From a virus (Duplodnaviria; Caudoviricetes): a stretch of 64,000 nt of DNA. A program made the translations under genes and the position numbers. The notes beneath the pieces were generated by a model. It had not been told where the DNA came from. It saw only the letters and a list, made by a program, of their open reading frames with translations, and did not search any database. Of the stretch, positions 23,650 through 56,481 are shown piece after piece. The number at the start of each line of letters is the position of its first letter. The first letter of the stretch is position 1. The stretch spans positions 2,281 through 66,280 of IMG/VR virus record IMGVR_UViG_3300010429_000098; one strand, written 5' to 3'.

Positions 23650-23663
23650 TACTTACAGATGAA

Positions 23664-24256: not shown

Positions 24257-24263
24257 TTTCTAC

Positions 24264-24291: not shown

Positions 24292-24309
24292 AATGAAAGG
24301 TAGACTATT

Positions 24310-39100: not shown

Positions 39101-42100
39101 TGGCCAAGAATGGAGTAGATGCTATCGGTATGAAGGTGATTGACACCAGCTCACCAGTCATTGTTAAGGATGCACCTGACGCTGCTACAGATGGTAATTA
39201 TAGTTTAGTATACGTAGCAGGATATGACATATCCACTGTCCCTCCTACTCTGTATGGGTGGCTTACACTTACCCCAGATAATGGTGTTGAGAGTGTTAGA
39301 TACTTAAATAATGCTACAATCCAACCCTTGCCAGATTCGGATGTTGACAGCTACACGATTAAACTATACGAGACAGATACTAGCACTGTAGTTCTAGACA
39401 CTGAGATTATACAGGTAGTATACCAAGGGTACAGTGGGGACTCTAGTCTATCAGTCTCGTTATCTAACGAAGCTCATTCAATACCAGATAATGGAACTTC
39501 AATAGATTATTCACGTTCAGGTACATGGATGTGGGTGTATGAGGGTACTGTAGCCTTACAGTATGACGCCACGGGCATGGCTGATGGGTCTTGGAGAATA
39601 GAGCCAAATGGCACATACGCAGGAACAGGTAGTGATATCACGCCTTCATTGTATAGTGCCATCTTCGATGGTGGATCATATGCCACGATTGGTGAGCATA
39701 GTGCTATAACAAATAACACCGCACAAGTGGTGTATCACGTCAGGGGTAAAAATAGCGTCGGTATAGCCTTTGATCTTTACAAGAATCAAACATTCAGTAA
39801 GGTAAATAACGGTGCTGACAGTGTAATTAGATTTATCAACTCAGCAACTCCGGTGATTACTAAACTAGCTCCTGACAGTGCTACTGATGGGGATTATAGT
39901 ACCGTAAATGCATCTGGTGTAGAAGCAAGAGGTGCTGTGGAGACTGTGTATGGTTTCTTAACCACACAAGATGATAATGGCATTGAGAGTACCCCGAGAG
40001 TAGCTTCTCCCATATCTTATACGCCTGCATCTACTTCTAAGGCAAAAAGTGTAACGTTAAGGTTATATGATGCGTTGACCGGTGGTAATTTAATAGATAC
40101 ATTCGTACTTAATGTAACCTATAATGGGGCTGCAGGGGAGCCTGCTATTAGCGGGTTGTTGACAAACGATACACATACCTTCCCGGCCAATTCCTCAGGC
40201 GCTATTACATCTTATGACAATTCTGGTACAGATATTTATGTCTATGAAGGGGCTGTCAGGCTTACATATGATGGTCTTGGTAATTCACCAGGTAAATGGA
40301 AGTTAGTGCCGGTTGGTACTTATGTAGGTAACTATGTGGACATCCTACCCTCATTGTTCGCTGACGTAATTGACAATACTTCATATATAACGATTGCCAA
40401 GCATCAAGATATGAATGCGGCAGACACTGGTAAAATATCCTATGAATTAATAGGCCAGTCGTCTACTGGTAAACCGTTTAGTATAGTAAAAGAACAAACA
40501 TTTAGTAAAGCTAAAGATGGCTCAGCTTTGGCTACAGTGTACTACATTGATGTTACCACTCCAGTAATTTCAAAGCTTTCTCCAGATGCAGCCACGGATG
40601 GCGTATACTCGCAAGTTACGGCATATGGTAGATCTAATGGCGCTGGTGTTATAGCTCCATATGGTTATTTAACTGTTACGCCTAATAACGGAGTTGAAAG
40701 CGCTAGAGTTCTGAACACTATTACGCTTGCTCCGGCTACGAGTGATGATGCTAGCTCTTATACTATTAAGCTATATGCCGATGCTGATATGTCTAATACC
40801 ACGGTATTAGATACATTTGTTATACAAGTTGTATTCAGAGGAACTGCCGGTCTTGATGGCTTGACTATGGCGCTTAGTAATGATTCACACTCTATTACTA
40901 CTGACGCCGCTGGTGTTGGTATATATGGTGGATCTGGTACTACTATTTATGTATACGACGGTGTTACACAATTAGCGTATAGCGAAACATTAGCTGCTAA
41001 TGGTACATGGAGACTTGATGGTACAGGTGCTGCTCCAATTAAAGCCGGTGTAGGCTTAGGCATTACATCAGCTAATAAACCTGTAGGTTCTGGCAATACT
41101 ACTGTAGTTGGAGATCATTCAGCTATGACTGCTGATACGGCTAGTGTGACTTATACCGTAAGTGGTAAGTCTGCTAATGGTACAGCTTTCACAATGACTA
41201 AAGCACAGACTTTTAGTAGGGCTAAGCAGGGTGACAAAGGAGATAAAGGCGATACCGGTAATGCTGGTAGTAACGGTAGTGCTGGTGCTACTGGCCCACG
41301 CAGTATTTCTTTATATATCTACTACAAAAATACTAGAAGTACTGCGCCTACGAGGCTTGATGCCGCTGAGTATAGCTATGACTTCTCTACTAATGTACTT
41401 ACACTTACTGCAGCAGGCCAAGCAAACTGGTCTACTACGTTTATTCCTGCTGCGCTTGGTGCAACAACAGCTTCAAATAAATACTGGGCATTTTCTGTTA
41501 TATTTACAGAGGACACGTATGGTGGGACCATTACTGAAGTTCCCTCTGTTGTATTTGAGTGGCAGAACTTCAATGGGCTTGCGACATTTACAAACCTTTC
41601 GACTCCTTTAGCTTCTGATGGTACTAATACGACATTTATAAATGGTGGCGCAATTGTTGCTGATAGCGTAAAAGTAAATACAATAACAAGTGGTGAGCAA
41701 ACCTCAAATTATAATGGCGGCAAATTCTCGATAGGTCTATCAAAGACATACGGGAATAGCGCATTAACAGCTGTTGGTAGATTTATAAGGACAACTAACG
41801 AAGGTATTTCGTTACTTGGTATTCAGAATAATACTACTTCAGCTGCTGGAGCTATCACTGGCCTGACAAGAGGCGCTAATGGGTGGGGCGTAAGTGGTTA
41901 CTATTCAGATAATGCTACTGCCGCAACACCTGATGATCAAATATATAATTCCTTTACTGGCGGCGGGTTCCTTGGCGGTAAGCTCAGTATGGTATACGCT
42001 GTCGTACCTTGGTCAAATGCTGATATCACCGGAAATTCAAAATATCAAGCAGCTCTTGGCTCAATAGATGCTGCATGTGCTGCGTATGCTAACTATCGTG

Positions 42101-42852
42101 TAGTTTCTGGCACATATAATCTTGCTAGATATCAGGCTATTTTTGGAACCAGTGGATATGGCGGCTCTTGTGGATATTTGACTACACCATCCGATGGTAG
42201 TGCCCAGACATTTTTGAAAAGAATAACACTGGCTAATGTATCCTATGCTGCTCAGGCTATAGCTGGACAAGGCAAAATATATGCTGCAGATGGAAATGGT
42301 CCATTTACGGGCTTTCACCAAGGTGTGATATTTAATACAGACCTTGTCGGGCTTGTTTTGGGTGATGTACTGGTTGATGTACAAATCGTCAAGAAGCTAG
42401 ATATCTCCAACACACTCTCGCGTGTTAATGCAAGCGCTACGTCCAGAGACCCAACAGTTATAGGTGTACTAAGCGAAATACATGCGATACCTCCTGCTGA
42501 GTTTTTTGATGAGGGGGATACATTAATTGCGGGGAGATATGCAGACGGCCTGAATAGTACAGATAGTGCACCTGCTACTTTAATTAAAGGCAAGAAAGCG
42601 CAATTTAGCCTTCCTAGTGGAATGTCTGTAGTAAGCATCAATTCATTGGGAGAAGGTATGATAAATGTATGTGGTAAGAACGGTGACATTTCTATAGGTG
42701 ATTTGCTTACAGCTAGTCCTATAAGAGGAAAGGCGATGCGACAGACTGGTAGTGGCATTCGTAATTTTACAATAGGTAAGGCAAGGGAGTCGGTTATGTT
42801 TACCTCGCCAAATGAAGTTAAACAAATAGCCTGCATATACATGTGCGGATAA
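36121..42852 (+). CDS. Tail tip / central fibre (gpJ-like host specificity protein), 2243 aa
   Basis: V.YGRAMVGG, GVAY, YS.NPAL.LLDYL...YG.G; PA14-like insert (YTFTSAADD..EIYLD); three ~235-aa repeats; collagen-like GxY stretch; chaperone-like C-terminus (NSLGEG.INVCG..GDI.IGDLL). Confidence 0.88.
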   Translation: MFAIFLYVVQAVIAVYSIIKQQQLAKQARQAQDAAKGIEVPYEAEVRSLVVAYGRAMVGGARVFHGTKSNFDHPDTPTGGTGAGGYEIASGTRTVEVVDEVISTGDPVNGPTVETITRTKNGTGLFWTVNGAKNEFLFIQQAICHAGIEGVVDVKMPGDRFYDHPDFAIGLRINIYNDGGVVDPMMAYNYPGNAKLLDEPGSPANPNGRADAAFNGVAYASMVFKYNRDNPQYNGIPDIQFLLKGQKVYSIVETAGVYSLSATKAYSNNPALVLLDYLMSTTYGVGMPTSELDLGSFYDAARVCATVVMNDAIAQGHIWTPSSMGGNVVKVRLPPNQPFLNDNGVWSYDQKTIEFNRSYTVEFTEGGVYTFTSAADDYHEIYLDNVLINTSNSWQVTVVNTVTITAGHSGVVRVYAKEIKGGAAVALTIDSVTKQIFNLTNPIPSVKRALPLYECNIALNTEDSLRDNVEKILESMNGAQLTWSGGKYKLLLQYPVNTAAIKVSAYLTDDDLIRDKCTIKWPNASERLNFCTIKFANEGLEFKDDSISWPKKYLPGQPEYPTSVYGIFMAEDNGVQLEAEFYDPAIKDPYHAKAKAEERVRRSRVSAVYTLSVRFSGLVFEPGDIINIRSNDFYIDPPGAVPPINPTPNNGENLLVQEASMDEEGRIQITAVRFTPEVFAWNVADDVYVRPPSIYYRTLNPPYNITYSNFNIAWEDVATTKASTYEVMYWYGGTNLYPDGSPILDEAALDSPYQFTAIMHRFYRTLFKLTPDVVVVGAWYSNPAVDKTSLETIIASSMLLPPVAANYPPGDSNTVFIEKVYTSMFKTLPDGYATDTWNAKLAGGYARSQMIIDLHGTYTDTNFVKIGETKNKQFEYVKFDREGIYGFAIVGKSDDGGRSTVGYGSRLYTADANGNLNGSSIATLFIYQRSATLPVVPTGTSYDFSTLTINGLNNGWLATIPNGNDPLYVSTSTASVTPPATIDNTLAWAPPTIMAKNGVDAIGMKVIDTSSPVIVKDAPDAATDGNYSLVYVAGYDISTVPPTLYGWLTLTPDNGVESVRYLNNATIQPLPDSDVDSYTIKLYETDTSTVVLDTEIIQVVYQGYSGDSSLSVSLSNEAHSIPDNGTSIDYSRSGTWMWVYEGTVALQYDATGMADGSWRIEPNGTYAGTGSDITPSLYSAIFDGGSYATIGEHSAITNNTAQVVYHVRGKNSVGIAFDLYKNQTFSKVNNGADSVIRFINSATPVITKLAPDSATDGDYSTVNASGVEARGAVETVYGFLTTQDDNGIESTPRVASPISYTPASTSKAKSVTLRLYDALTGGNLIDTFVLNVTYNGAAGEPAISGLLTNDTHTFPANSSGAITSYDNSGTDIYVYEGAVRLTYDGLGNSPGKWKLVPVGTYVGNYVDILPSLFADVIDNTSYITIAKHQDMNAADTGKISYELIGQSSTGKPFSIVKEQTFSKAKDGSALATVYYIDVTTPVISKLSPDAATDGVYSQVTAYGRSNGAGVIAPYGYLTVTPNNGVESARVLNTITLAPATSDDASSYTIKLYADADMSNTTVLDTFVIQVVFRGTAGLDGLTMALSNDSHSITTDAAGVGIYGGSGTTIYVYDGVTQLAYSETLAANGTWRLDGTGAAPIKAGVGLGITSANKPVGSGNTTVVGDHSAMTADTASVTYTVSGKSANGTAFTMTKAQTFSRAKQGDKGDKGDTGNAGSNGSAGATGPRSISLYIYYKNTRSTAPTRLDAAEYSYDFSTNVLTLTAAGQANWSTTFIPAALGATTASNKYWAFSVIFTEDTYGGTITEVPSVVFEWQNFNGLATFTNLSTPLASDGTNTTFINGGAIVADSVKVNTITSGEQTSNYNGGKFSIGLSKTYGNSALTAVGRFIRTTNEGISLLGIQNNTTSAAGAITGLTRGANGWGVSGYYSDNATAATPDDQIYNSFTGGGFLGGKLSMVYAVVPWSNADITGNSKYQAALGSIDAACAAYANYRVVSGTYNLARYQAIFGTSGYGGSCGYLTTPSDGSAQTFLKRITLANVSYAAQAIAGQGKIYAADGNGPFTGFHQGVIFNTDLVGLVLGDVLVDVQIVKKLDISNTLSRVNASATSRDPTVIGVLSEIHAIPPAEFFDEGDTLIAGRYADGLNSTDSAPATLIKGKKAQFSLPSGMSVVSINSLGEGMINVCGKNGDISIGDLLTASPIRGKAMRQTGSGIRNFTIGKARESVMFTSPNEVKQIACIYMCG
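39130..41226 (+). repeat. Three tandem ~232-237-aa repeats in the tail tip protein
   Basis: PVI.K.APD.ATDG.YS at about 39150, 39850 and 40560; each followed by YG.LT....NG.ES.R, LSN..H, SGT.I.VY.G and Q.FSK. Confidence 0.85.
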
Positions 42853-42877
42853 TTCAGCTTATAAGCTGCAAGAAAGG

Positions 42878-42909
42878 AAACCCCTCATAGTAACATATGG
42901 GGGGTTTTT
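42878..42909 (+). terminator. Intrinsic terminator ending the structural operon
   Basis: AAACCCCTCATA-gtaaca-TATGGGGGGTTT-TT. Confidence 0.8.
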
Positions 42910-42912
42910 ATC

Positions 42913-42941
42913 GCGGGAAAATTGCCATCTTATATGAAGAA
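42913..42941 (+). promoter_or_regulatory. Candidate phage-RNAP promoter copy 1 (GCGG-N8-CCATCTTATA-TGAAGAA)
   Basis: Immediately after the terminator and at the head of the accessory operon; repeated at 48636 and 50692. Confidence 0.6.
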
Positions 42942-42987
42942 AGAAACAAAGCAATAATGCGATGTACTCTTCATAAAGGAAAGTGTT

Positions 42988-43398
42988 ATGAACACGGATA
43001 AAGATCGTATCAACTTGAATATGTCTATCATGGACATCGTACTGGCTCTGAGTGAAGGCAATCCCGGCGCACTCACTGTCTGTTTGGAAGGCACACAGAA
43101 ATATCCTTCTTATGATCCTGATTCAGCGCTTGCAGGACTTACACCCCTTCTTAGCCTGGACACGAATCGCGTGTACGGGCCGAACATTTGGGTCCTATAT
43201 AAAGACATTTGCGGAGAATCGTATCTGCGAATGTTCGCACTCTTTCGGGCAACTCAGCTTGGACTGATCAATTGCAATGTGATCAAGAATGCAATTGCAG
43301 CTACCAATCGTTACGAGCGGCACGGTCTTGATCTGGACAAAATCGTAGCTGACGTTAAGAACAGACTCCCGCGTTTTGGAGTAGACCTCGATGAATGA
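42988..43398 (+). CDS. Hypothetical protein
   Basis: 136 aa with RBS AAGGA; LSEGNPGA..V...YG..IW.LYKD.C motif. Confidence 0.7.
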   Translation: MNTDKDRINLNMSIMDIVLALSEGNPGALTVCLEGTQKYPSYDPDSALAGLTPLLSLDTNRVYGPNIWVLYKDICGESYLRMFALFRATQLGLINCNVIKNAIAATNRYERHGLDLDKIVADVKNRLPRFGVDLDE

Positions 43399-43594
43399 AC
43401 GCCTTGACAAAGGTGACTATTTAAACTCGTTGATGAAAGGCAGGATTTACGACCCTCGCCTTTTAGACGCCTGCTTTACGTATTGGCATAGTGGAATTCC
43501 CTTGGAAAAGGCACGAGAGTACCTGAATACCTTGGAGAATAAGCTAGCCGATAAAGCCGCTCGAAAAACAAAGTTAACATTTAGGATTCGATGA
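43391..43594 (+). CDS. Hypothetical protein
   Basis: 67 aa, overlapping start/stop coupling. Confidence 0.6.
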   Translation: MNERLDKGDYLNSLMKGRIYDPRLLDACFTYWHSGIPLEKAREYLNTLENKLADKAARKTKLTFRIR

Positions 43595-43803
43595 TGTTTG
43601 GATTAGTAATTACATTTGTAACAGTCTTGTCGCTTTCACTATCTAGTTTAACAGTTAGTGGCGATAATGCTCAAAAGGCTATAATCGCTTGCACAGATAA
43701 AGGCGGTCTCAAAGAGCTTTCTAGTTTCAGTTTTGCTGGAAGTGCTGCGGATGTCAGTGCTGTTTGCAAAAATGGTGTAACGCTTAAATGGATAGCCAGA
43801 TAA
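43591..43803 (+). CDS. Small membrane-anchored/secreted protein
   Basis: Hydrophobic N-terminus, AIIAC..KGG...AVCKNG two-Cys motif. Confidence 0.6.
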   Translation: MMFGLVITFVTVLSLSLSSLTVSGDNAQKAIIACTDKGGLKELSSFSFAGSAADVSAVCKNGVTLKWIAR

Positions 43804-44798
43804 TGCTCACAGCAAAAACACCTGAAGAACTTTATGAATATGGTGATGAGAAAGCATTGACCAAACAATTCAGAGTTCTAGCATCTATTCACCATCCAGA
43901 TAAGGGTGGGGATGCAATAGATTTCGCCTTAGTGAAGCAGCTGTATAACGAAGCTCTGGTAAAAATACAGAGTGGATATCCATGGGAAAGTCCTACAAGT
44001 GTCACATGGCAAGGGAGTATTGCGAAAATGCGCCTTAGCTATCGTCTCAAACGAAAGTTTGAACTTGGCACAGAGTTCGTCGGTGAATCTCGCATTCTGT
44101 ATTCCATGGATGACGGCAACGCAGATATGATCGAGAACGCAGTGCGTATGCTTAAATTGTCTCATCAAAACCTGGGACCAAATGACAAGCTGAAAAGGAT
44201 CAATGATAAATTGATTCCAGGCATTGCAGATTGTACTGCTTCAGCTAAACATCCTACTTTACTTATAGGTAAGAAAGTAGAAGAAATACCGTTGAAAGCG
44301 GTATTTGATACTCGCGGAGCCATTCCGGAAGTTCATATCATGTGGATGATTGGACGGATGATGCACCTCCTCTGCTACCTAGAATGGGCCGGTATCGTAC
44401 ATGGAAACATTACTCCAGCGTCATTCTACGTTAACCTTGAATACCATTCACTTCACCTTTATGGTGGGTGGTGGTATAGCGCTCTGAAAGGAGAAAAGTT
44501 CAAGGCACTGCCAGCACGTACACTTCGCTATGTGTCTGCTCCATACAAGGCTGAAACACGCCTGGACTGGGAACTTGCACGACAAACTGTCGTAGAGCTT
44601 CTTGGTCATCGGTCACCAGTAGAGTTGAAAATGCGGAAGGATCTGAATCCAGGCATAGTCAATTTTCTAGTGAGCCCTTGGTCTGCAAAATCTGCTACAG
44701 ATTTGTATGGTCAATGGGAGCATGTGAGAGATTCCTTCGGTCCACGAAAGTTTGTTAAATTCGCCATAGACGGAAAGTTGGTTTTAAATGACGAATAA
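43803..44798 (+). CDS. J-domain (DnaJ-like) fused to a protein-kinase-like fold
   Basis: FR.LA..HHPDKGG J motif; C-lobe-like LCYLEWAGIVHGNITP.S..V...L.L.GGW; the expected catalytic Asp is Asn. Confidence 0.7.
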   Translation: MLTAKTPEELYEYGDEKALTKQFRVLASIHHPDKGGDAIDFALVKQLYNEALVKIQSGYPWESPTSVTWQGSIAKMRLSYRLKRKFELGTEFVGESRILYSMDDGNADMIENAVRMLKLSHQNLGPNDKLKRINDKLIPGIADCTASAKHPTLLIGKKVEEIPLKAVFDTRGAIPEVHIMWMIGRMMHLLCYLEWAGIVHGNITPASFYVNLEYHSLHLYGGWWYSALKGEKFKALPARTLRYVSAPYKAETRLDWELARQTVVELLGHRSPVELKMRKDLNPGIVNFLVSPWSAKSATDLYGQWEHVRDSFGPRKFVKFAIDGKLVLNDE

Positions 44799-45339
44799 TA
44801 GCATGCAATCATATTTTAATAAATGGTTTCATTACAGTAGTGGCTGGCTAATTTGGAAAAAATCACCCGGAGGTACAACAAAGAAAGGAAATCGCGCTGG
44901 ATCAGACACATCAGCGGGGTATCGTAAAATTAGATTGCACGATACTCAGTATATGGAACATCGTATAATTTGGATTATGCACTACGGTGATATTCCTGAA
45001 GGGCTTGTAATCGATCATATTAATCGGATAAGAAATGATAATGTGATTGAAAATCTAAGAATTGTTACGCAGATGGTTAATATGAATAATTCAGTAATAA
45101 CTGAAGAGTCTACTAGTCGATACTCGTGTGTTTCATTCGTAGAAAAAGGAACTAGTTGGCACGCTTGCATACGTCGTAATAAAATAACTGTCGAATTAGG
45201 ATATTACGAAGATGAAAAGGATGCTGCTAGAGCTGTTAATATATTCTGCAGAGATAACGACATTGAAAAATTCAATGATGTTCCAGAACCGTTTAAGGAG
45301 CCTATAAGAAAGGAGCGCAAATACCCATTAATTAAATAA
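44788..45339 (+). CDS. Free-standing HNH homing endonuclease
   Basis: EHRIIWIMHYGDIPEGLVIDHINRIRNDNVIENLR plus AP2-like half; close paralog of 62488-63192. Confidence 0.85.
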   Translation: MTNNSMQSYFNKWFHYSSGWLIWKKSPGGTTKKGNRAGSDTSAGYRKIRLHDTQYMEHRIIWIMHYGDIPEGLVIDHINRIRNDNVIENLRIVTQMVNMNNSVITEESTSRYSCVSFVEKGTSWHACIRRNKITVELGYYEDEKDAARAVNIFCRDNDIEKFNDVPEPFKEPIRKERKYPLIK

Positions 45340-45419
45340 GTAAATATATCAAGTTTATGAATTTAAGGCAATTTCGCCATTAGTATTGAATGACGACATG
45401 GTCGTCTAAGGAGATTGAA

Positions 45420-46358
45420 ATGGGTGGTACAAGTTACAGTGCATACAGTCCAACACGTTCGGACTGGAATACACGGTCTATTCGAGATGCAAACAAGACT
45501 GTTGATGCTCTTTATACGGCGAAGACAGTTGACAAAGGTAATGATGCAAAGAACATTGTTGTCCGTGAAGCACGCGACAGCGATGTCAACCCGATCACTG
45601 TGCCAATCTTCATTGGTGTTGATGGCACAGGGTCCATGGGTTCTCTGTCAGGCGTTGTTGCCAAGAAAGTTGGGTTGGTATTCCAAGAGTTGATCGACAA
45701 AGCTGTTGTGCCTGGCCCTCAGGTGTCTGTGGCGTTGTATCGTGATGTACTCATGGATTACTACGCACAATATCAATGGACTCAATTCGAGAGTGATCCT
45801 GTTACTCTCATGGGTCAAGTTGAAAAGTTCTATGCCGTTGGAACGGGTGGTGGTGGAAATAGCTCAGAGTCGAATGGCCTCGTGTGGTATTCTGCATTGA
45901 CGAAAGTCGTCGCAGATCATATGGTCAAACGTGGTAAGAAAGGCTACTTGTTCACAATTGGCGATGAGGAAGTTCCACCGAATCTCAATGAAATGGACCT
46001 TCGGGTCGTATTCAGTGACGGTCCACAAGTGGTTCCAACAAATGAAGAAATGATCAAGGCCTTGCAAAAGGATTGGCATGTCTTTCATATCATGGTTGCG
46101 CAAGGAAGCCATATGCGTAGCTATCGAGATCGGGTAATTCGTTCGTGGACGAAGCTTCTTGGTCAGAACGCATTGTTGTTGGAGCACACGGACTCGATGT
46201 TGGAAGTCATCGTGTCTACCATCCGAATTCTTGAAGGAGAATCGGTGGACGCTGTAGTGGCAAGCTGGAGTGGTGATACTGCATTGGCTGTGCAAACGGC
46301 TACGAAGAATCTTGTGCCAGGCAAGTCCTCTTCATCGAGCGCAGTCGTAAGGCTGTAA
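45420..46358 (+). CDS. von Willebrand factor A (vWA) domain protein
   Basis: MIDAS-like IFIGVDGTGSM, QFESD, GGGGNSSES, YLFTIGDE; ATG 45420 has RBS AAGGAG. Confidence 0.8.
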   Translation: MGGTSYSAYSPTRSDWNTRSIRDANKTVDALYTAKTVDKGNDAKNIVVREARDSDVNPITVPIFIGVDGTGSMGSLSGVVAKKVGLVFQELIDKAVVPGPQVSVALYRDVLMDYYAQYQWTQFESDPVTLMGQVEKFYAVGTGGGGNSSESNGLVWYSALTKVVADHMVKRGKKGYLFTIGDEEVPPNLNEMDLRVVFSDGPQVVPTNEEMIKALQKDWHVFHIMVAQGSHMRSYRDRVIRSWTKLLGQNALLLEHTDSMLEVIVSTIRILEGESVDAVVASWSGDTALAVQTATKNLVPGKSSSSSAVVRL

Positions 46359-46411
46359 TATAAACGGGCCATCCTGAATAAATATATGGATGGCCCATTT
46401 TTAAGGAGTGT

Positions 46412-47197
46412 ATGAGAGTGCGTAGTAATTGTGAGGAGATGATTGGAAAAACATATCATAAATTAACTGTTCTAAAAGTTAGCGATGAAACGCTCAAAGG
46501 CGGCCAAACACTACTAGAATGTATCTGTGAATGTGGCAATACTAAATTAGGAATGCCGTCCCAATTGCGAAACAGCAAATTAAAATCTTGTGGCTGTCTA
46601 TATCAAGAAAGACTTGTGGACTGGACAGCATTAATTGGAGAGAGGTTTAATAATCTCATACTTTTGCGTCTTGCAGAAAAGGTAAATGGCATGCAACAGG
46701 GAGTGTTTTTGTGTGAATGCGGGAATGAACACACGTGTAATATAACTTCCGTGAGAAGAGGCACGACTAAGTCTTGTGGCTGCGGAAATTCAGGCGGTCG
46801 TCCCTTGGAAAAGCATGGAGCAGAAGGATCACCCGCATACGTATCCTGGGTCGCAATGAAGCAGCGCTGCAATAATGTAAATAATGACCATTATCACAAT
46901 TATGGTGGTCGTGGTATTACATATGATAGCAACTGGGAGTCTTTCATACGATTTTTTGAAGATATGGGCGAACGCCCACCAGGAACTTCGTTGAATAGAA
47001 GAGACAATGATGGAAATTACTGTAAAGAAAACTGCATGTGGTCAACCACAAGTGAGCAGATGAGAAACACAAGCAGAAATGTCTTTATTACGCTAGGTGG
47101 TGTTACTAAATGCAAAATTGATTGGGAACGCGAGCTGGACTGTAAGAGTGACACCTCTGTTAGCAGAATAACTGAAATCTATAACCAAAGAAAGTAA
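46412..47197 (+). CDS. HNH-type endonuclease with duplicated CxC/SCGC N-terminal modules
   Basis: Two C.CECG...L..G..KSCGC units; W.AMK.RC.N...Y..YGGRGI...DMGERP.G.SL.R.DNDG.Y...NC.W. Confidence 0.8.
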   Translation: MRVRSNCEEMIGKTYHKLTVLKVSDETLKGGQTLLECICECGNTKLGMPSQLRNSKLKSCGCLYQERLVDWTALIGERFNNLILLRLAEKVNGMQQGVFLCECGNEHTCNITSVRRGTTKSCGCGNSGGRPLEKHGAEGSPAYVSWVAMKQRCNNVNNDHYHNYGGRGITYDSNWESFIRFFEDMGERPPGTSLNRRDNDGNYCKENCMWSTTSEQMRNTSRNVFITLGGVTKCKIDWERELDCKSDTSVSRITEIYNQRK

Positions 47198-47201
47198 TAA
47201 A

Positions 47202-48335
47202 ATGGAACATATATGCGTCATGGGCGCTAATGCGGGTGACGAGGGTAAAGGGCATCTTGTGGACTATTTCGCTTCATCGGGCGAATACTCTACTGTTGTG
47301 CGATTTAATGGTGGCCCACAAGCTGGGCATACTGTTGAATTGGAGGGTAACAAGAGATTCATATTCTCTCAGCTTGGATCAGGCAGTTTGCGTGGTCTCA
47401 ATACACATCTTTCACGATTTATGTTAGTAAACCCAATTTATTTCATGCGTGAATACAACAAGTTCCAAAGTGAATTTGGAATTAAATTGAAAGTCACCAT
47501 GGATCATCAATGCGAGATTATTACACCCTGGGATGTGGCTCGTAATCAGAACATTGAAAAGCGTCGTCGTGAGAATGCTCATGGCAGTGTGGGGCACGGT
47601 ATCTTTGAAGCTACTAAAAGAGCTTATGAGATATCTCTTACAGCTGAACGACTTGCACATATCTCCAGTGCAGAATTGTCAATAGTGCTGCGTGATGTTG
47701 CAAGATTTCACAATCTTCCATTTGTTCCAAGTGATTTCAATCAGTTTACTGATGCACTTGTGCAGATGTTCGAAGTTGTGAATAGCAAAAGGGATGCTAC
47801 TGTTATCGAGCAGCCATGCATATTTGAAGGTGCACAAGGTCTTCTCCTAGACAAGGACTCAGGAATGTTTCCATATGTTACGCCTTCTCACACAGGTTTA
47901 ACGAATGTGGTTGCATTGCTGAGCGAATGCGATATACAACAAGCCGTGAGGCCCGTGTACGTCACGAGGTCTTACTTAACAAGGCACGGGCCTGGGCCTA
48001 TGTATTATCCTTGGGTGCAAGATGCACATCCATTCTACGAGGAAATGCGGCCAGGGTGGTTGGATGATGATCATACCAATCATTACAACGAGTGGCAAGG
48101 TTATCTTCGTTATGGAGAACTCTCTGTAACTCAGCTGCACTATTCTATTATGAAGGACATGTATCCGGCGCAGCGAAACACGAAGGTAAATGTCCGAAAC
48201 GCTCATGTTGCAATGACTTGGGCTAATTTTGAAACCAACTTGAATCCGTGTAAATTTGTGGGAATGCCTTGGAAGCTTAAATACGAGTCACACGGGAAAA
48301 CGAGTAATCACGTAAAGGAAATCAATGAGACCTGA
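47202..48335 (+). CDS. Divergent adenylosuccinate-synthetase (PurA)-like ligase
   Basis: GANAGDEGKG, RFNGGPQAGHT, FEGAQGLLLD...FPYVTPS, YLTRHGPGP; the aspartate-binding loop and GTP-specificity region are altered. Confidence 0.85.
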   Translation: MEHICVMGANAGDEGKGHLVDYFASSGEYSTVVRFNGGPQAGHTVELEGNKRFIFSQLGSGSLRGLNTHLSRFMLVNPIYFMREYNKFQSEFGIKLKVTMDHQCEIITPWDVARNQNIEKRRRENAHGSVGHGIFEATKRAYEISLTAERLAHISSAELSIVLRDVARFHNLPFVPSDFNQFTDALVQMFEVVNSKRDATVIEQPCIFEGAQGLLLDKDSGMFPYVTPSHTGLTNVVALLSECDIQQAVRPVYVTRSYLTRHGPGPMYYPWVQDAHPFYEEMRPGWLDDDHTNHYNEWQGYLRYGELSVTQLHYSIMKDMYPAQRNTKVNVRNAHVAMTWANFETNLNPCKFVGMPWKLKYESHGKTSNHVKEINET

Positions 48336-48672
48336 TATTCAACTTTGGAATCCGGCACAACAGCGTTGGTGCTGGTATCGTGACATGCCTGGTATCGGTT
48401 ATCACATCATCGACGACGCCCAAGCCGGTTGTCTTAAAGAAGCCAAGATTCAAGTGCCAGTTAAGCATGTTGAAAAGCTCTTTTTTGAGAATAGACCTGA
48501 TTTGACAAGCGGAGAAATCTGGTGTACTAAAACCGGTGCCAAAATTCGCTATCTCGGTGGCGGATGGTGGCATATGTACGGCTATCGTTCAAAAGGAGAG
48601 GATGTGAAAGAGTGTCTTGACATCCTTGAAAATTTGCGGAAAAACAACCATCTTATAATGAAAGAAAAATAA
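48325..48672 (+). CDS. Hypothetical protein
   Basis: 115 aa, Trp-rich, overlaps the PurA-like stop. Confidence 0.6.
   Translation: MRPDIQLWNPAQQRWCWYRDMPGIGYHIIDDAQAGCLKEAKIQVPVKHVEKLFFENRPDLTSGEIWCTKTGAKIRYLGGGWWHMYGYRSKGEDVKECLDILENLRKNNHLIMKEK
48636..48657 (+). promoter_or_regulatory. Candidate phage-RNAP promoter copy 2
   Basis: GCGG-aaaaacaa-CCATCTTATA, in the last codons of 48325-48672, ahead of a structured ~130-nt leader. Confidence 0.5.
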
Positions 48673-48850
48673 ATTAACAATAGTGTTAGAGTTTCTTTTA
48701 GTGTGGCGACTAAGTAAAGCCAAACTAGATACATTTCGAAAGAGGTGTATCAATGATTGGTTTTAGTTTATTAACAATAGGAGGAGAGCGTATGGACACT
48801 GATTCTGCGAAAATCGTGGCATTCGAAAACCAGTATTTCGAGGAGAATTC

Positions 48851-49360
48851 ATGACTCATTCAGAGCTAATCGCGATATTAAATCGCAACCGAATCGACTA
48901 TCACGGTTGGTTCAAAACCGTCGAAGAACTCCTGCAAGAGATCAATGATGGCGAATCTTCGATTGACAACAACGGGGTAAATCAACTCGCTATTGTCAAT
49001 TGTGAGATTGTTGATTCGCGTGGGTATCGTTTGTTGGAGGCTGAGCAGGTCTACCACGACGGTCGCGTGAATAGCAGGATGATCAAAGTGTCTGGTAAAA
49101 TCCAGCGCAATGAGGCTCCTGTACAGGCAATGCATCGTGAACTAGCCGAAGAGCTGGGGATCGTGTTGTTGCCGAATGAATTGACTTATACTGGATCTTC
49201 TGTAAGGGAGAATCAGTTTAGGCCATTCTACGCTACACTTCCGTCCCGCTGTATACGTCACCATTTCTTCTTTCACATGCCTACTAGTATGTGGAAACAG
49301 GAATATGTAGAAGTGGACAGCAAGAAGACTGCGAAGTTTCGATGGTTTCCATCGGAGTAG
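48851..49360 (+). CDS. Nudix hydrolase
   Basis: Canonical Nudix box GKIQRNEAPVQAMHRELAEELGI (GX5EX7REUXEEXGU). Confidence 0.85.
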   Translation: MTHSELIAILNRNRIDYHGWFKTVEELLQEINDGESSIDNNGVNQLAIVNCEIVDSRGYRLLEAEQVYHDGRVNSRMIKVSGKIQRNEAPVQAMHRELAEELGIVLLPNELTYTGSSVRENQFRPFYATLPSRCIRHHFFFHMPTSMWKQEYVEVDSKKTAKFRWFPSE

Positions 49361-49433
49361 AACTAAACTAGGAGCCTTTGCAGAGGTTCTTATGGTTAGT
49401 TTTGTGTAAGTAGTTTTAACAACAGGAGTAAAG

Positions 49434-49547
49434 ATGAAACAAGAGATTCACAAGTGGACAGACGGATATATTACGTTCGTTGGGACAGAGAAACAATGGA
49501 TGGCTTCTAGCTATCCTGCATGTGGTGGCTTTTGGCAGATTTATTAA
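49434..49547 (+). CDS. 37-aa small ORF
   Basis: RBS CAGGAG; MKQEIHKWTDG...WQIY*; below the ORF-track cut-off. Confidence 0.45.
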   Translation: MKQEIHKWTDGYITFVGTEKQWMASSYPACGGFWQIY

Positions 49548-49566
49548 TTTACAACAGGAGTTAGAA

Positions 49567-49872
49567 ATGAAAAAGTTTTTCTTGGTTTTGATGGCGACGC
49601 TAGCCCTGGTTGGTTGCGGAGCTGAAAGTGAATTAAAGTCGCTTACTAAAGAGCGATTGAAGGATCCGGAATCTGCAAGATTTGGTAAAATCACGGTATT
49701 GGAAAATGTGGCTTGCGTGACAATATCCGCTAAAAACGGATTTGGTGGATACGGCAATACCACGCAATTCGCATTCGAGAAAGAGAAAGGAAACTGGAAA
49801 TTCTTTTACGATATGGAACTACACCATGACGATTGTGTTCGAATAATGTCCAGGAGAGCGAAAAACAAATGA
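49567..49872 (+). CDS. Lipoprotein
   Basis: MKKFFLVLMATLALVG-C lipobox; LKDPESARF...C..I.AKNGFGGY.G-like motif; RBS CAGGAG. Confidence 0.75.
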   Translation: MKKFFLVLMATLALVGCGAESELKSLTKERLKDPESARFGKITVLENVACVTISAKNGFGGYGNTTQFAFEKEKGNWKFFYDMELHHDDCVRIMSRRAKNK

Positions 49873-50066
49873 ACTGGTACATAGTTCGTAATCACCAAGG
49901 GAAATGTGTGTATGCACATTTCAGTCTTGACAAAGCCCGAGATGCCCTAAGAAAGCATGACAGGGCAGTGGTATTGGAGTCATACAATGTCAACTACATC
50001 ATTGGATGGGCTGCATGTGTGATAGTGTTTGGAGGGATTGGTGTCATGCTTGCATGGCGTGGGTAA
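49869..50066 (+). CDS. Small protein with C-terminal TM helix
   Basis: Overlap coupling; IIGWAACVIVFGGIGVMLAW. Confidence 0.55.
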   Translation: MNWYIVRNHQGKCVYAHFSLDKARDALRKHDRAVVLESYNVNYIIGWAACVIVFGGIGVMLAWRG

Positions 50067-50088
50067 TTTTTTAAAGGAACAGTTCAAA

Positions 50089-50304
50089 ATGAATAAGTTT
50101 TATTGTAAGTTCATGTGTATCGCGGAAAAAATCGTAACTGTCGCATTACTACTGATTGCAACAATGGTGGTGGTAAAAGCTGGCACTGTCTCAGCATTGT
50201 TGCTACCTGCGTTTGTGATTTATATGGTTCTTGAGATGAACCAATCCTATTCGTCCAAACGGAGAAATGCGAAAAACCCTGGGACTCATGTAAATGAAAA
50301 ATAA
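50089..50304 (+). CDS. Small two-TM membrane protein
   Basis: RBS AAGGA; two hydrophobic segments. Confidence 0.55.
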   Translation: MNKFYCKFMCIAEKIVTVALLLIATMVVVKAGTVSALLLPAFVIYMVLEMNQSYSSKRRNAKNPGTHVNEK

Positions 50305-50689
50305 ACTCAAACTAGTCGTTTGTGCGGTAATGGACGGTTGGAATATGTCTGTAGGCAAGAAGACGAAACATTTCGATCGTGAATTTCGTAAACAAAGTTG
50401 CAAAATCGAAGAAGTCGAATTGCATGAACAGGCAAAATACACGGCTAATATTCTGTACTTAGCGGCAAACGCGTTTGGAGAGACTGTACACGACTTGTTG
50501 TTGTGGGCGAAACAGGTGATTCAAAATATGGACAGAAAAGACATTATTATTCTATTTACTATTTATACATTTTTGTTTCACCCTGTTCTGTCGCTCGTAC
50601 TATTATCTTTGATAGTTTTGACGGATATGATCAGCGCGTTTAAAGGAGGAGAACGTGCTGCTGTGAGTATCGTAAGGGAAGCGGTGTAA
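50294..50689 (+). CDS. Hypothetical protein with C-terminal hydrophobic segment
   Basis: 131 aa. Confidence 0.55.
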   Translation: MKNKLKLVVCAVMDGWNMSVGKKTKHFDREFRKQSCKIEEVELHEQAKYTANILYLAANAFGETVHDLLLWAKQVIQNMDRKDIIILFTIYTFLFHPVLSLVLLSLIVLTDMISAFKGGERAAVSIVREAV

Positions 50690-50691
50690 CT

Positions 50692-50720
50692 GCGGCCTTT
50701 TAGCCATCTTATATGAAGAA
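50692..50720 (+). promoter_or_regulatory. Candidate phage-RNAP promoter copy 3
   Basis: GCGG-ccttttag-CCATCTTATA-TGAAGAA; 18 nt (GCCATCTTATATGAAGAA) identical to copy 1; 12-bp inverted repeat with 50743-50754. Confidence 0.6.
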
Positions 50721-50811
50721 CAAAGATATAGCAATCTTGCTAGTTCTTCATATACCTAAACTTATTATGAGTTTGCTTAGGTATATTTATCAATTAATAA
50801 TAGGAATATAA

Positions 50812-51057
50812 ATGAATCAACATGCGAATAAGACGATCCCGCAACTAGAGGCACAATTAAAAGCGCTTAAACTAATCGCAAAGGGCGGCTTTCAAATGGA
50901 TCTTCGCCACAATCAACTTAAACAAATGGAAATTCTTTTCTATCTGGCTGAGTTGTATGGAGAGGATGATGCCAGGAATAAGCGGAAAATCTACGCTACA
51001 ACTGCACGTGTACCCATCACAACCTATCTGGAGAGTAAGAAATTACTCCCTGCTTAA
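50812..51057 (+). CDS. Hypothetical protein
   Basis: 81 aa, RBS TAGGA. Confidence 0.6.
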   Translation: MNQHANKTIPQLEAQLKALKLIAKGGFQMDLRHNQLKQMEILFYLAELYGEDDARNKRKIYATTARVPITTYLESKKLLPA

Positions 51058-51085
51058 ACATTTAATAACTTCATAAGGAATAATC

Positions 51086-51313
51086 ATGTTCAAATTTTTC
51101 AAAGAACGCATCGCTCAACAAAATCGCGTTGCACGGTATCAGCAATTCAGGACCGAGATTGATATCATTATTAGCAAAGAAAGTGCCGCAAGGGACGATC
51201 TGCGCTTGATGGTGAACAACAGGCATTGGAACGCTGCCAGGAGCGTTATCGCAGAACTGGAGAGCTATGACGAGACAAAAAAGAGCCTCCAGGCTGAAAT
51301 CCTCGCGCTGTAA
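51086..51313 (+). CDS. Hypothetical protein
   Basis: 75 aa, RBS AAGGA. Confidence 0.65.
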   Translation: MFKFFKERIAQQNRVARYQQFRTEIDIIISKESAARDDLRLMVNNRHWNAARSVIAELESYDETKKSLQAEILAL

Positions 51314-51324
51314 AGGAGCCAATC

Positions 51325-51462
51325 ATGTGGATAATTGTCTTAGTGCTTGTCGGTCTTCATATTCTCTCTTATTTCACCAATAAGGAGAAACCGTACGAGA
51401 ATAACAGGAAGTACACATACGAGGAGGTTTATCGTACACGCGACGGGGAGAACACACTGTGA
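51325..51462 (+). CDS. 45-aa single-TM protein
   Basis: RBS AAGGAG; MWIIVLVLVGLHILSYF; its TGA overlaps the next GTG. Confidence 0.55.
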   Translation: MWIIVLVLVGLHILSYFTNKEKPYENNRKYTYEEVYRTRDGENTL

Positions 51463-51641
51463 ACAAGTTCGTAAAGAATCTTGTCAAATGGATTTTGATC
51501 GGTATGACGGTAACGATCATTCTTAAAATGGCAATTGCGATGGCAAAGGGATTAATCTTTGTTGTCATCACATGCGTCATCATTTCCGCTATCTTTGGTA
51601 AAATCGTCTCAACAACAACTTTGTTTAAGGAATCAAAATGA
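51459..51641 (+). CDS. 60-aa two-TM protein
   Basis: Hydrophobic; coupled at both ends. Confidence 0.6.
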   Translation: MNKFVKNLVKWILIGMTVTIILKMAIAMAKGLIFVVITCVIISAIFGKIVSTTTLFKESK

Positions 51642-51832
51642 GCTCCGTTATCTACATCGTCCTCGTTCTCCTGGCCATCTTCTTGGGCATGAAAATTGCT
51701 CGTGGATTGATTACCGGTTTGGTCCTCTTGTTTGGCGTCGGTCTGTTCGCGCGACGTGCGAAGAAAGTTGCACCGATGAAGGCCACGGTTCATGAAAACT
51801 TTCGGTCTAACGCAAATGCTACGAATGCTTAA
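51638..51832 (+). CDS. 64-aa two-TM protein
   Basis: RBS AAGGA; hydrophobic N-terminal half. Confidence 0.6.
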   Translation: MSSVIYIVLVLLAIFLGMKIARGLITGLVLLFGVGLFARRAKKVAPMKATVHENFRSNANATNA

Positions 51833-52013
51833 AGCCGTTTGGCTTGCGGCAAAATTTACATTGTTCCTCCTGGTGTTAGTGGCTTTCGCAGGCATCGCCA
51901 CCGGAGGGCATGTGTATTCAGTGAATGGCACACTGGCTGTATTTAAAATAGTATGGCCAGTTGTGACAATCCTGTTCGTAGCCGCTACATTTGCTAATAA
52001 GGCCGTGAAATGA
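51792..52013 (+). CDS. 73-aa two-TM protein
   Basis: Two hydrophobic helices. Confidence 0.55.
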   Translation: MKTFGLTQMLRMLKAVWLAAKFTLFLLVLVAFAGIATGGHVYSVNGTLAVFKIVWPVVTILFVAATFANKAVK

Positions 52014-52180
52014 GCAAGAAAGTCTATCATATCCATAGCAAAGAAAGTGAAGATATTGAGCTAGGTAAGGTAGTGGTGATTATATTAGCACTAATAGTAG
52101 TATATAGGTTGCATCTTTGGATATTAATCTTTCTATACGCTTTGTACCTTCTAAGCAGGCCCTTTGTGGACGATATCTGA
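52010..52180 (+). CDS. 56-aa membrane protein
   Basis: ATGA overlap; VVVIILALIVVYRLHLWILIFLYALYLL; not in the ORF track. Confidence 0.55.
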   Translation: MSKKVYHIHSKESEDIELGKVVVIILALIVVYRLHLWILIFLYALYLLSRPFVDDI

Positions 52181-52358
52181 AACTAAGAATATATTAATTG
52201 CCGGCCTTGTGCCGGCATTATTTCCATTATTTTTTTTTTTCGAATATCAATAATAATAACAAAACAATCTTGCCGGCATTTGCTGGCATTTTCTACATTA
52301 TTTTTTTCAGAAAGGCTATCTATACTAAGAATAGTAAGATAACAAAAGATAAAGTTAG

Positions 52359-52643: not shown

Positions 52644-55600
52644 ATGCATAATCTTATTCAGCAGTTAGTAGCGATAACCAAGGAGAGATTGGAAGACGAA
52701 GTAAGTGATCGACAATCTCTCAAGTTTATCAAGAACTCGGATATCCTGGATTGTATCGCAACGTCTATTGAAGTAATCTATTTATACACTCGCCAAGAGC
52801 GTGGCGATGCTAAGGCTGCCCTGTTCACTGAAATTACGTTGAACATAGGAAAAAAGATTCGCAAGGGAATGAAGAAGGACAGTGCACTAAATGTAAGAAC
52901 CGGTGCGTTCTTTCTGTATACATTCGAGATGACAGAGATAATTCGTGTAGCACTAGGTCAAGGCACTAGTAAGCATGCAACGTATATCGTCGAAGTATTA
53001 GATGAAGAAATACTATCGAAGCTATGGGATAAACTAGATTTCCAACGGACTGTTAAGCTCCCATCCGTGACTCCAATAGCACCTTGGAAGACCTCTAAAC
53101 ACGAGATAGGTCTTAATCTAGTGAAGACACAAGATCAAGATGTACTGTATCAGCTTACCCCTAAAACACATCCTATTGTATTCGATTGTGTAAACAAGGC
53201 TCAAGAGGTTGGCTGGGTAATCAATGAACCGGTATATCAGCTGTTTGCATGGTCAATAAGAAATAGAACAGAATCATTCAATGATATTTGGGAAATGCAA
53301 AGCGATCAGGCGAAGGCGAGTAAACTACGTGAGGCTTATGCGATTGGCAATATCGCAAGTAAACTGATTGATAAAGTATTCTACCACTATCATACACTTG
53401 ATTTCAGAGGCAGATTGTACACATCTACTGCATATTTGAACCATCAAGGAAATGATCTTGCGAAGTCACTCTTGCTACGAGCCGAGGCTAAACCATTAGG
53501 TGAAAAGGGATTCTTCTGGTTGTTAGTAAGCATAGCTACGCATTGGGGCGGGGCATCGCATATACCCGGTAGAAAGACAGATAAGATTCCATTGCAAGAA
53601 CGTGCCATATGGGTGAAGGATAATGAAGAGATTATTCTGTCCTATGCCACTTCGCCTAAGGTAAATATAGGATGGCATAAAGCTGATAAGCCTTGGCAAT
53701 TTATTGCAGCATGTATCGAATTAAGAAGAGTGCGCGAATGGCAAGCATACATGCGAATCTCAGGGAGTCATTTCGACGAGTATGGATTCTCGTCAAGCTT
53801 CACTGGATGGCTGGATGGCAGTACAAATGGCGTACAGCATCTTAGCGCATTAACAAGAGATGAGATAGTTGCACCATATGCGAACCTTGTTCCTCTTGAA
53901 TACCCTGGCGACTTGTACGCATACGTGGCTGAGCATGTGTGGAAAACGGTACAAGACGCTGTGGATAAGATTCCACCAGAAGACAGGGAATCACTTGAGA
54001 GTGTTATTGATAACATGATTGAGCTGCGTAAGGAGATTGGCGCATCTGAAAAGAAATCTGATAAGAGAAAAGAAGCTGTTGATGCATTGTATGAATTTAG
54101 GACTTCCTATGCCAATGCACTTAAATCAGCGGCACCAATATATTGGAATAGAATTAAAGATACAAAAGAAAGAAGAAAGATCGCTAAGAGAGGCGTTATG
54201 ACTATTTCGTGAACTTTGCGAAATTAAAACCTGGTGAATTCGGTGGATCTCTGTTCGCCGCAGACAATACCGAGCGAAGCTTCGAATAGTAATATTCGTT
54301 GAACGTGTAACGACTATCGAAAGGCAGGCAATCCCTGAACCGAGTAGAGTACTGGACAAGTGTCTAGGAAGCGCCAGGGCGTTGTGTACTAAGATACAAC
54401 GTGTGATATAGTCTCATCTGCATAGTGATGTGCAGTAGCTAATTTGTATATAAAATAGGTATTCTTATGCATAATTGGAAAGAATTATTTGATTATAGTG
54501 ATGGATTTTTATTCAGAACTGAGAAGTATTTTGAATTGTATCCTGCTACACGCAGACACGCAGATGTTGGCTGGTGCAATAATCAAGGGTATGTACAGAC
54601 GGAGATAGACGGTGTTGCCTTTATGCTTCATAGGATTATATGGGAATGGCATCATGGCCCAATACCTGCCGGAATGCATATCGATCATATAGATAAAAAT
54701 GGGTTAAACAACAAAATAGAAAATTTAAGGCTGGCCACTCAATCGCAAAATAGAGCTAATAGCAAAATGAATAAAAACAACACAAGTGGTCACAAAGATA
54801 CAGTCAGAACGCCAAATGGTAAATTCCAAGCAAGAGGAACGGAAAATGGTAAGAAATTATATTTAGGCTTATTTGACACGGTAGAAGAGGCGAGTGAATG
54901 CTATAAGGCATGGGCTCGAAAGAAACACGGCGATTTTGTTTCTTTCGATTAATTAATTGACTACAAATTAGCTACGATACAGATACAACTGTATCGCAAG
55001 ATAATGATGGTTCTACAGCATATGGTATGGCAGATCAAGTCCTGGATGATGCCAGGAAACACGGCATTGATTTATTGCTATACATGGAAAAGACGTTTGG
55101 CGTATATATGGGTAGACTCATTTACGATGATTGTAGGATCTCCTTGAATCGTCCTATGAGGCTGCTAGAGCTATTTGAAAAAGCTGGAGAACGCGCTGAA
55201 GAGAAGGATGAGTTTCTATCTTGGAAATTACCGATAACTGGCTTCCCTGTAGTACAACACTATGTGGAAGGCACTGTAAGGAAGATTTGGATTAATTATT
55301 GGCCACCAGAGGGGCCTCCTCTAAGTAACGGCTATTACGCAAACACGTTGCAGATATCGATACCGTTTAATGAGATTCCGAAGCGTAGCAGTCGTAAGCA
55401 GAAGTTAGGTGCTGCTCCTAATATCGTTCATAGTCTAGATGCAGCACACTTGATGCTAGTAATACATGAGGCAGGTAAAGCTGGATATCGTGTAACAACA
55501 GTACACGATTCATTCGGGACATTGCTCGCTGATATGGACAATCTGTTTAAACTGACACGAGAGACATTCGTAAGCTTGTATAATAAGGATCCTCTCGTAA

Positions 55601-56310: not shown

Positions 56311-56330
56311 ATACCCGTAGGGTATTTTTT
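56311..56330 (+). terminator. Intrinsic terminator
   Basis: ATACCC-GTA-GGGTAT-TTTTT. Confidence 0.7.
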
Positions 56331-56337
56331 CTGGCAC

Positions 56338-56460
56338 CGCTTGTGTGCTCAAATGTTACAAAAAGACTAATGCCTAGTTGGCGCCAATGAGAGTCTTTCT
56401 CTTATAAAAGCACTTGAAATCGGTAGCAACCGAGCTTGAAGCGTGAGTTCTCATCATAGG
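56338..56460 (+). ncRNA. Candidate structured RNA (unassigned)
   Basis: Nested stems CGCTT/AAGCG, GTGCT/AGCAC, AAAGACT/AGTCTTT, TCGGT/ACCGA in a 150-nt ORF-free gap. Confidence 0.3.
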
Positions 56461-56481
56461 TAATTTCTTAAATTAACCTAA

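Follow-up and report, generated by a model that had tools for sequence, protein, structure and literature searches.

Which enzyme starts transcription in a long-tailed phage that encodes two T7-type RNA polymerases (RNAPs) of its own, and at which sites? The question is raised by a stretch of 64,000 nucleotides, called the window here, which covers bases 2281–66280 of the 66,280-bp record IMGVR_UViG_3300010429_000098 (G000 in the comparisons). All genes of this genome lie on the + strand, and a short element, motif 1, occurs three times among its small genes. The motif is real and strongly conserved, and it is best read as a new class of early promoter for a T7-type polymerase borne in the capsid. 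More specifically, we give a probability of about 0.6 to the reading that the three sites are early promoters for a phage single-subunit RNAP, most likely the capsid-borne RNAP1; the second polymerase, RNAP2, is encoded downstream of the sites. The motif, its statistics and position, its family-wide conservation and the gene content around it are observed directly. The window proteins were assigned by PHROG scans and the RNA families by Rfam.

Three copies of motif 1 head the early units

The pattern GCGG-N8-CCATCTTATA has exactly three matches in the window (42913–42934, 48636–48657 and 50692–50713), all on the + strand. None is expected by chance, as 100 dinucleotide-preserving shuffles contain no match; the three copies reported in a first-pass annotation are thus exact. 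The rest of the 66,280-bp genome holds no further copy, even with three mismatches, except chance-like matches inside genes. Copies 1 and 3 run on identically as TGAAGAA, as had been noted, and copy 2 runs on as ATGAAAG with one extra A (TATA-A-TGAAAG). Each of the three leaders folds into a stem beginning with the first bases past TATA. The scores below are from the family position weight matrix (PWM).

42876–42909, +, hairpin and U-run, intrinsic-terminator-like, closing the late (tail) operon (−20.1 kcal/mol, z −4.9)
42908–42939, +, motif copy 1, core 42913–42934 (PWM score 37.8; 53 nt before the ATG at 42988)
42935–42973, +, copy 1 leader stem-loop, from the first base after TATA (UGAAGA...UCUUCA; −8.2 kcal/mol, z −3.05)
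48631–48662, +, motif copy 2, core 48636–48657, variant TATA-A-TG (PWM score 23.1)
48659–48700, +, copy 2 leader stem-loop (−7.2 kcal/mol, z −1.94)
50687–50718, +, motif copy 3, core 50692–50713 (PWM score 24.6)
50714–50750, +, copy 3 leader stem-loop (UGAAGAAC...GUUCUUCA; −11.8 kcal/mol, z −3.88)

Copy 1 begins 4 nt past the terminator-like hairpin, in agreement with the earlier statement that it follows the late-operon terminator. Copy 2 sits in the last codons of the open reading frame (ORF) 48325–48672, and heads a possible 20-codon mini-ORF (48792–48854) and the Nudix gene at 48851. Copy 3 begins 2 nt past the stop of ORF 50294–50689 and stands 98 nt before the ATG at 50812. Copies 1, 2 and 3 are 53, 193 and 98 nt away from the next long ORF, respectively, and the three units downstream of the copies span 42988–48672, 48792–50689 and 50812–52181.

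Host RNAP transcribes the early genes of many phages, and the TATA-rich hexamers of motif 1 (TATAAT in copy 2) would suit such an enzyme if it were guided by an unusual host sigma factor or by a phage-encoded redirecting factor. However, the only possible −35/−10 spacing at the three sites is 13–14 nt, whereas sigma-70 requires 16–18 bp. In copy 2, the distance of 14 nt from TTGCGG to TATAAT, which the first-pass annotation judged unfit for sigma-70, was counted correctly, and a sigma-70 promoter is ruled out by this spacing. A sigma-70 consensus scan reports no site at the three motif positions, and the region shows no enrichment of sigma-70-like sites (24 found, 36.9 expected). Copy 2 alone resembles the heat-shock-type consensus CTTGAAA-N14-CCATCT, but copies 1 and 3 carry no heat-shock-like −35; a promoter of this type is rejected as well, since it fits copy 2 only. 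In addition, motif 1 has about 20 conserved positions, unlike sigma-70 promoters, and no sigma-like gene turned up in the PHROG scans of the window proteins.

Motif 1 is conserved across the family as one continuous signal

Relatives were found in IMG/VR first by scanning for the exact motif pattern and then by scanning with an alignment built from the C-terminal parts of RNAP2; searching IMG/VR with the single RNAP2 sequence gave no match. From the 114 relatives of the alignment-based scan, 80 loci were retrieved, and 65 non-redundant loci (1.06 Mb) were analyzed. In the contigs picked up by the motif scan, RNAP2 is only ~45–57% identical to that of G000 while the motif is exact. Four of these contigs carry 3–4 copies and a partial contig carries one, always on the gene strand, with none in the backwards control.

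The consensus from 93 distinct copies is AAAyT-GCGGAAAA-nnn-GGTATCTTATATGA. Conservation reaches ~5 nt upstream and ~3 nt downstream of the core, and the first four bases of N8 are A-rich (GCGG-AAAA). Thus, motif 1 is a single continuous signal of ~28 nt and not the two boxes separated by eight variable bases that had been described: the spacing of eight is exact, and half of the spacer is not free. The CC/GT variants of the motif are mixed within single genomes.

The placement of the motif is equally regular. In the 65 loci the PWM gives 93 forward and 0 reverse matches. All 92 mapped copies lie 0.8–7.5 kb upstream of the RNAP2 start, the last copy of a locus being ~1 kb before RNAP2, and the flank of up to 10 kb on the far side of that start is free of copies. 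Each of 22 large contigs has 1–5 copies on a single strand only (61 matches, against 2 in the backwards control). From the TATA to the next ORF start the median distance is 45 nt (interquartile range 38–87), 80 of the 93 distances being within 150 nt, and where copies are in tandem, an ORF follows each of them. The first copy lies directly 3′ of a terminator-like hairpin in 11 of 47 loci, which is the layout seen in G000. Strand specificity, proximity to ORFs, family conservation and the position upstream of RNAP2 all support the earlier proposal that motif 1 is a promoter for a phage RNAP.

Two results bear on what recognizes the element. First, the motif core is unchanged across loci with a GC content of 31.5 to 65.4%, in hosts that presumably differ, which argues further against the host enzyme; we consider that host RNAP reads motif 1 very unlikely. 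Second, none of the early proteins of G000 (42988–52036) has a homolog in the relatives G001–G004. Because the downstream early genes have no homologs between genomes, conservation is selective on the element and not inherited with the region, and the recognizer must therefore travel with the phage.

Motif 1 could also be something other than a promoter: a sequence-specific signal at which a T7-type polymerase pauses or terminates, a site of RNA processing, or a site bound by a phage regulator. The ATCTTAT of the core is loosely like the T7 class II pause signal ATCTGTT, which precedes a U-run; however, it is followed by the purine-rich TGAAGAA, without a U-run. Intergenic sites also fit gene ends, and the virion RNAP of phage P23-45 has a conserved 26-nt termination motif (PMC10770324). 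Such functions fit poorly with the tight distance to the downstream start codon and with the tandem copies, each ahead of its own ORF. The conserved part of motif 1 contains no inverted repeat and the motif is not a palindrome; the Rfam search matched only the group I intron described below and no known RNA family at motif 1. A second stop signal would also be redundant, because the first copy directly follows a strong intrinsic terminator, and the early block of G000 would be left without any promoter. Thus, we give a non-promoter function little chance.

Regarding the start of translation, a leaderless mRNA from the ATG of the motif itself was considered and rejected, as such ORFs have a median of 12 codons and the normal ORF start lies ~45 nt further on.

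Two polymerases and a second motif

The genome encodes two T7-type RNAPs, listed here with the features around them.

13150–19072, +, RNAP1, MuF-type minor head protein plus T7-type RNA polymerase, interrupted in G000 (phrog_241 plus weak phrog_414)
52199–52217 and 52271–52288, +, two near-identical terminator-like hairpins with long T-runs (z −3.0 and −3.3)
52644–54212 and 55027–55695, +, RNAP2, T7-type single-subunit RNA polymerase in two exons (phrog_414, 1.4e-66 and 4.9e-36)
54187–54435, +, group I intron splitting RNAP2 (Rfam RF00028, 55 bits)
54467–54952, +, HNH gene within the RNAP2 intron
55270–55360, specificity-loop homolog PPLSNGYYANTLQISIPFNE of G000 (RNAP2 exon 2 residues ~86–112; the basic residue at T7 R746 is proline)

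The polymerase part of RNAP1 follows the MuF domain within 13150–19072, and in the relative G002 the MuF and polymerase matches abut at 5458/5459. In most relatives this part is a single open frame of ~1530–1780 aa. All 17 near-complete relative genomes have an RNAP1 match. The motif A and C aspartates are visible (DASSS and IHDAFF). In RNAP2, the HDSFG motif and the specificity-loop homolog are alignable to T7/T3, and the closest cultured RNAP2 is that of the roseophage DSS3_VP1 (Naomviridae), with 29.6% identity. Both genes are uninterrupted in most relatives. Where the RNAP2 genes of relatives are interrupted, this occurs at differing places, by insertions with homing-endonuclease-like ORFs:

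G003:C1:43736–44650 and 45378–46115, insertions in RNAP2
G004 (reverse complement) 11508–12294, insertion in RNAP2

The next most widespread word in the family is motif 2 (CCCGTTAAATTAACCC; form (A)ACCCGTTAAATTAACCC(T)). It is T3-like, sharing ATTAACCCT with the annotated T3 promoter phi1.05, and it gives 68 forward and 0 reverse matches in the 65 loci. Where it occurs upstream of the motif-1 cluster, it precedes the first motif-1 copy in 23 of 24 loci. Its other placement is right behind RNAP2, 2.6–7.4 kb after the RNAP2 start and typically 30–40 nt before an ATG, and it was never seen between motif 1 and the RNAP2 end in the loci scanned. Whole contigs mostly have 3–7 copies on the gene strand, including one that closely follows the RNAP1 gene and precedes the capsid gene. 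Example copies are as follows.

L150:1057–1075 and 7625–7643, motif 2
G002:C1:8024, 32263, 41989, 55569 and 65260, motif 2

Motif 2 is probably the RNAP2 (middle/late) promoter. With motif 1 before RNAP2 and motif 2 after it, the layout is the one predicted by a polymerase relay. RNAP1 would be the most economical reader of motif 1, because in most relatives another motif takes its place directly behind RNAP2; the assignment to the virion enzyme, which had been suggested from this genome, is thereby favored.

The specificity loop points in the same direction. The RNAP2 segment aligned with that of T7/T3 has the family pattern [RK]xS[ST]GY[YF]xNTLQL, or in its longer form (E/P)(R/K)xS(T/S)GY(Y/F)xNTLQLxICFIE. 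Exactly three genomes, G000, G003 and G009, depart from it; G000 reads PPLSNGYYANTLQI. Motif 2 is absent from the same three whole genomes, in all of which motif 1 is intact. As the loss of motif 2 coincides with an aberrant RNAP2 loop, motif 2 is tied to RNAP2, an association that is suggestive and is given here without correction for phylogeny. Motif 1, by contrast, stays constant while the RNAP2 specificity-loop homolog changes.

In a competing assignment, motif 1 is the promoter of RNAP2 alone, or of both paralogous polymerases, and RNAP2 amplifies its own operon. Either host RNAP, or RNAP1 working at other sites, would then supply the first RNAP2, and transcripts from the three sites would read through most of G000. 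This assignment gains from G000 having no other repeated promoter-like word: k-mer and PWM scans find no second promoter class there. It gains also from G003 and G009, which lack motif 2 and have more dispersed motif-1 copies, and from RNAP2 being the more T7-like enzyme. However, in the relatives motif 2 begins exactly at the RNAP2 end and precedes the capsid genes, the RNAP2 loop homolog varies, strongly so in G000, against an invariant motif 1, and there is no conserved candidate host promoter ahead of RNAP2. On balance we find it improbable, though less so for G000, that RNAP2, alone or along with RNAP1, reads motif 1, and retain RNAP1 as the more likely reader.

Two further observations concern motif 2. 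At 56468–56478 of G000, TTAAATTAACC is an 11-nt match to the motif 2 core. It is placed as expected, after RNAP2 and a terminator at ~56330–56350, but it abuts the ATG of an HNH ORF at 56482, and may be what is left of a promoter after disruption by a homing endonuclease gene. Some relatives have, outside the early cluster, a motif-1 copy with a motif 2 copy 10–45 nt upstream of it; such pairs may act as dual promoters, for genes needed early as well as late.

G014:C1:62375–62423, motif 2/motif 1 pair
G008:C1:63341–63421, motif 2/motif 1 pair
G024:C1:35631–35703, motif 2/motif 1 pair

Distant kin among cultured phages

We compared these features with those of DSS3_VP1, whose DNA contains deoxyuridine (dU). 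Its 'minor head protein-like protein' (1463 aa; record 21242–25633, L146:1–3072) contains a T7-type RNAP1 homolog with 34% identity (E 9e-74), which is mentioned in neither the record nor the paper (PMC8323127). That paper does not discuss RNA polymerases or phage promoters. GCATCTATAATGA occurs three times in the record, each time in forward orientation. Two of these copies lie upstream of the polymerase gene and have the longer repeat GTGAGAAAAC-TAA-GGCATCTATAATGA in common; they stand directly after the tape-measure terminator, ahead of small ORFs leading to the polymerase gene. In a hand alignment ~18 of 26 positions of this repeat match motif 1. Starts would be predicted 1–3 nt past ATCTATAA, at record positions ~35821, 36268 and 67805. 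After RNAP2, a different repeat (ATAGGGTGCGTTAAAGA) occurs in four copies.

DSS3_VP1 thus has the same gene order, the MuF–RNAP1 fusion, RNAP2, three homologous elements and a different motif after RNAP2, although the RNAP identity is only ~30–36% and the core is ATCTATAATGA instead of ATCTTATATGA. Pelagibacter phage Kolga encodes a head morphogenesis protein of 633 aa and an RNAP2-like enzyme, but no RNAP1 homolog, and its whole record contains no motif-1-like site. This is the direction to be expected if motif 1 belongs to RNAP1.

Proposed relay

From the sequence we infer a promoter role for motif 1, its start positions and the identity of the polymerase that reads it. In the proposed mechanism, the MuF domain would bring RNAP1 into the capsid, from which it would be ejected together with the DNA, as suggested by the behavior of SPP1 gp7-type MuF proteins. 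The promoter would be an asymmetric element of ~28 bp with an A/T-rich lead-in, GCGG, an A-tract, ~3–4 free bases, (G/C)(G/C/T)(T/C)ATCTTATA and TGA, which RNAP1 would bind as duplex DNA, melting the TATA segment. Transcription is predicted to start at or adjoining the G after TATAT, that is, near T42935/G42936 in copy 1, at A48658 to G48660 in copy 2 and at G50715 in copy 3. The transcripts would open with a 5′-anchored stem-loop; T7 class III leaders likewise begin with a stem-loop.

The three sites would jointly drive a block of ~9 kb of small, fast-evolving early genes, from the late-operon terminator to RNAP2. RNAP2 would be made from motif-1 transcripts and, in most relatives, would then take over at the T3-like motif 2. 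Motif 1 would thus serve the genes needed before RNAP2 exists, and motif 2 the middle and late genes. For the family as a whole we lean, by somewhat better than an even chance, towards motif 1 being the cognate promoter of a capsid-delivered, MuF-fused T7-type RNAP, the pair being near-constant from digester and freshwater phages to the marine dU-DNA Naomviridae and forming the first step of an undescribed siphovirus relay.

Several points weigh against this assignment. Every close relative has both RNAP1 and RNAP2, which leaves no clean phyletic split, and Kolga is a single, distant negative. As G000 lacks motif 2, the two-class logic is borrowed from its relatives, and RNAP2 in G000 could read motif 1, or something else. 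The hairpins at 52199 (TGCCGGC...GCCGGCA) and 52271 (TGCCGGC...GCTGGCA) lie 72 nt apart, between the membrane-peptide genes and RNAP2, and stand between the copy-3 unit and RNAP2. Motif-1 transcripts would therefore need read-through to reach RNAP2 in G000. Of the earlier claim that the sites drive a block ending in RNAP2, the position of motif 1 upstream of RNAP2 holds and its end point depends on this read-through. In some relatives, extra motif-1 copies lie among replication genes, so motif 1 is not strictly 'pre-RNAP2'. Lastly, a 5′-anchored leader stem (first paired base at position 0–2) is only a moderate trend in the family, seen in 57 of 100 copies and in 72 of 200 control windows, which rules it out as a universal feature.

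Comparison with known phage promoters

Motif 1 resembles the T7/T3/SP6-type promoters of Autographiviridae in being a single asymmetric element (~20–25 bp in that type) with few repeats, co-oriented with genes. Both also have an upstream part rich in A/T, a specificity block, TATA just ahead of a purine start (predicted for motif 1) and a 5′ transcript stem-loop, and the genome encodes T7-type RNAPs with an alignable specificity-loop homolog. However, motif 1 is unrelated in sequence and longer upstream (GCGG at ~−23), has only 2–5 copies per 60–90 kb in the early region only, and is carried by a siphovirus with two paralogous RNAPs. It is also far more conserved than T7-group promoters at similar polymerase divergence.

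In the N4 relay, a virion RNAP acts before RNAPII. A proposed virion-delivered T7-type RNAP, few early promoters and an operon encoding a second RNAP are common to both systems. N4 early promoters are DNA hairpins with a 5–7 bp stem and a 3-nt loop, centered ~11 nt upstream of +1. In contrast, motif 1 has no inverted repeat, and hairpins occur only downstream of its TATA and are variable in size. RNAP1 is fused to a MuF head protein, whereas the N4 enzyme is a standalone protein of 3500 aa. The 3451-aa ORF of the window (24310–34665) is a tape measure protein and is surrounded by portal, MuF-type head morphogenesis, capsid and tail genes. This identifies a long-tailed siphovirus; an N4-like phage is ruled out by the tape measure and by the lack of a hairpin in motif 1.

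A further parallel is P23-45, a Thermus siphovirus with a tape-measure-fused virion RNAP, a non-virion RNAP and two promoter motifs, in which the virion RNAP transcribes the pre-early genes, including the second RNAP gene (PMC10770324). Both are siphoviruses with a virion RNAP fused to a structural protein and two motifs, and the same argument from relatives without the virion enzyme was made there (PMC10770324). The P23-45 RNAPs are two-barrel enzymes related to the cellular type, whereas both RNAPs of G000 are T7-type, and the fusion partner in G000 is MuF instead of the tape measure.

Phage RNAP promoters and virion-RNAP relays are thus already known from N4 and P23-45 (PMC10770324). Our literature search returned no relevant paper containing ATCTTATATG, and none on this motif, the promoters of this family or the relay. 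If the proposed reading is true, the relay would be a third independent invention after N4 and P23-45, and would provide a new orthogonal RNAP/promoter pair. A large phage family, nearly all of it uncultivated (at least 114 IMG/VR contigs, with Naomviridae as distant kin), would have motif 1 as its early signal, and this signal would be tied to a capsid-borne polymerase joined to a head protein. The ability to start transcription without the host enzyme would then be explained, a point relevant to the relatives with dU-substituted DNA, and start sites would be predicted to within a few bases. Cultured DSS3_VP1 on Ruegeria pomeroyi is an available test system. The unusual constancy of the promoter across polymerases that are only 30–60% identical is of interest for polymerase–promoter co-evolution and for orthogonal expression tools.

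Other features of the genome

A megablast of 42000–52000 against cultured phages gave no match. Within the third unit, at 51326–52181, five small hydrophobic + strand ORFs form a chain with overlapping stops and starts. Since the + strand encodes these chained ORFs, the 220-aa minus-strand ORF at 51374–52036 is probably not a real gene.

In the late region, three hairpins with the invariant loop GTGACAG lie 27–35 nt before late-gene starts.

3057–3084, hairpin with GTGACAG loop
6321–6344, hairpin with GTGACAG loop
12504–12528, hairpin with GTGACAG loop

They were not found in the relatives G002 and G003 and are therefore specific to the G000 lineage. A late promoter and a processing site are both possibilities for these hairpins.

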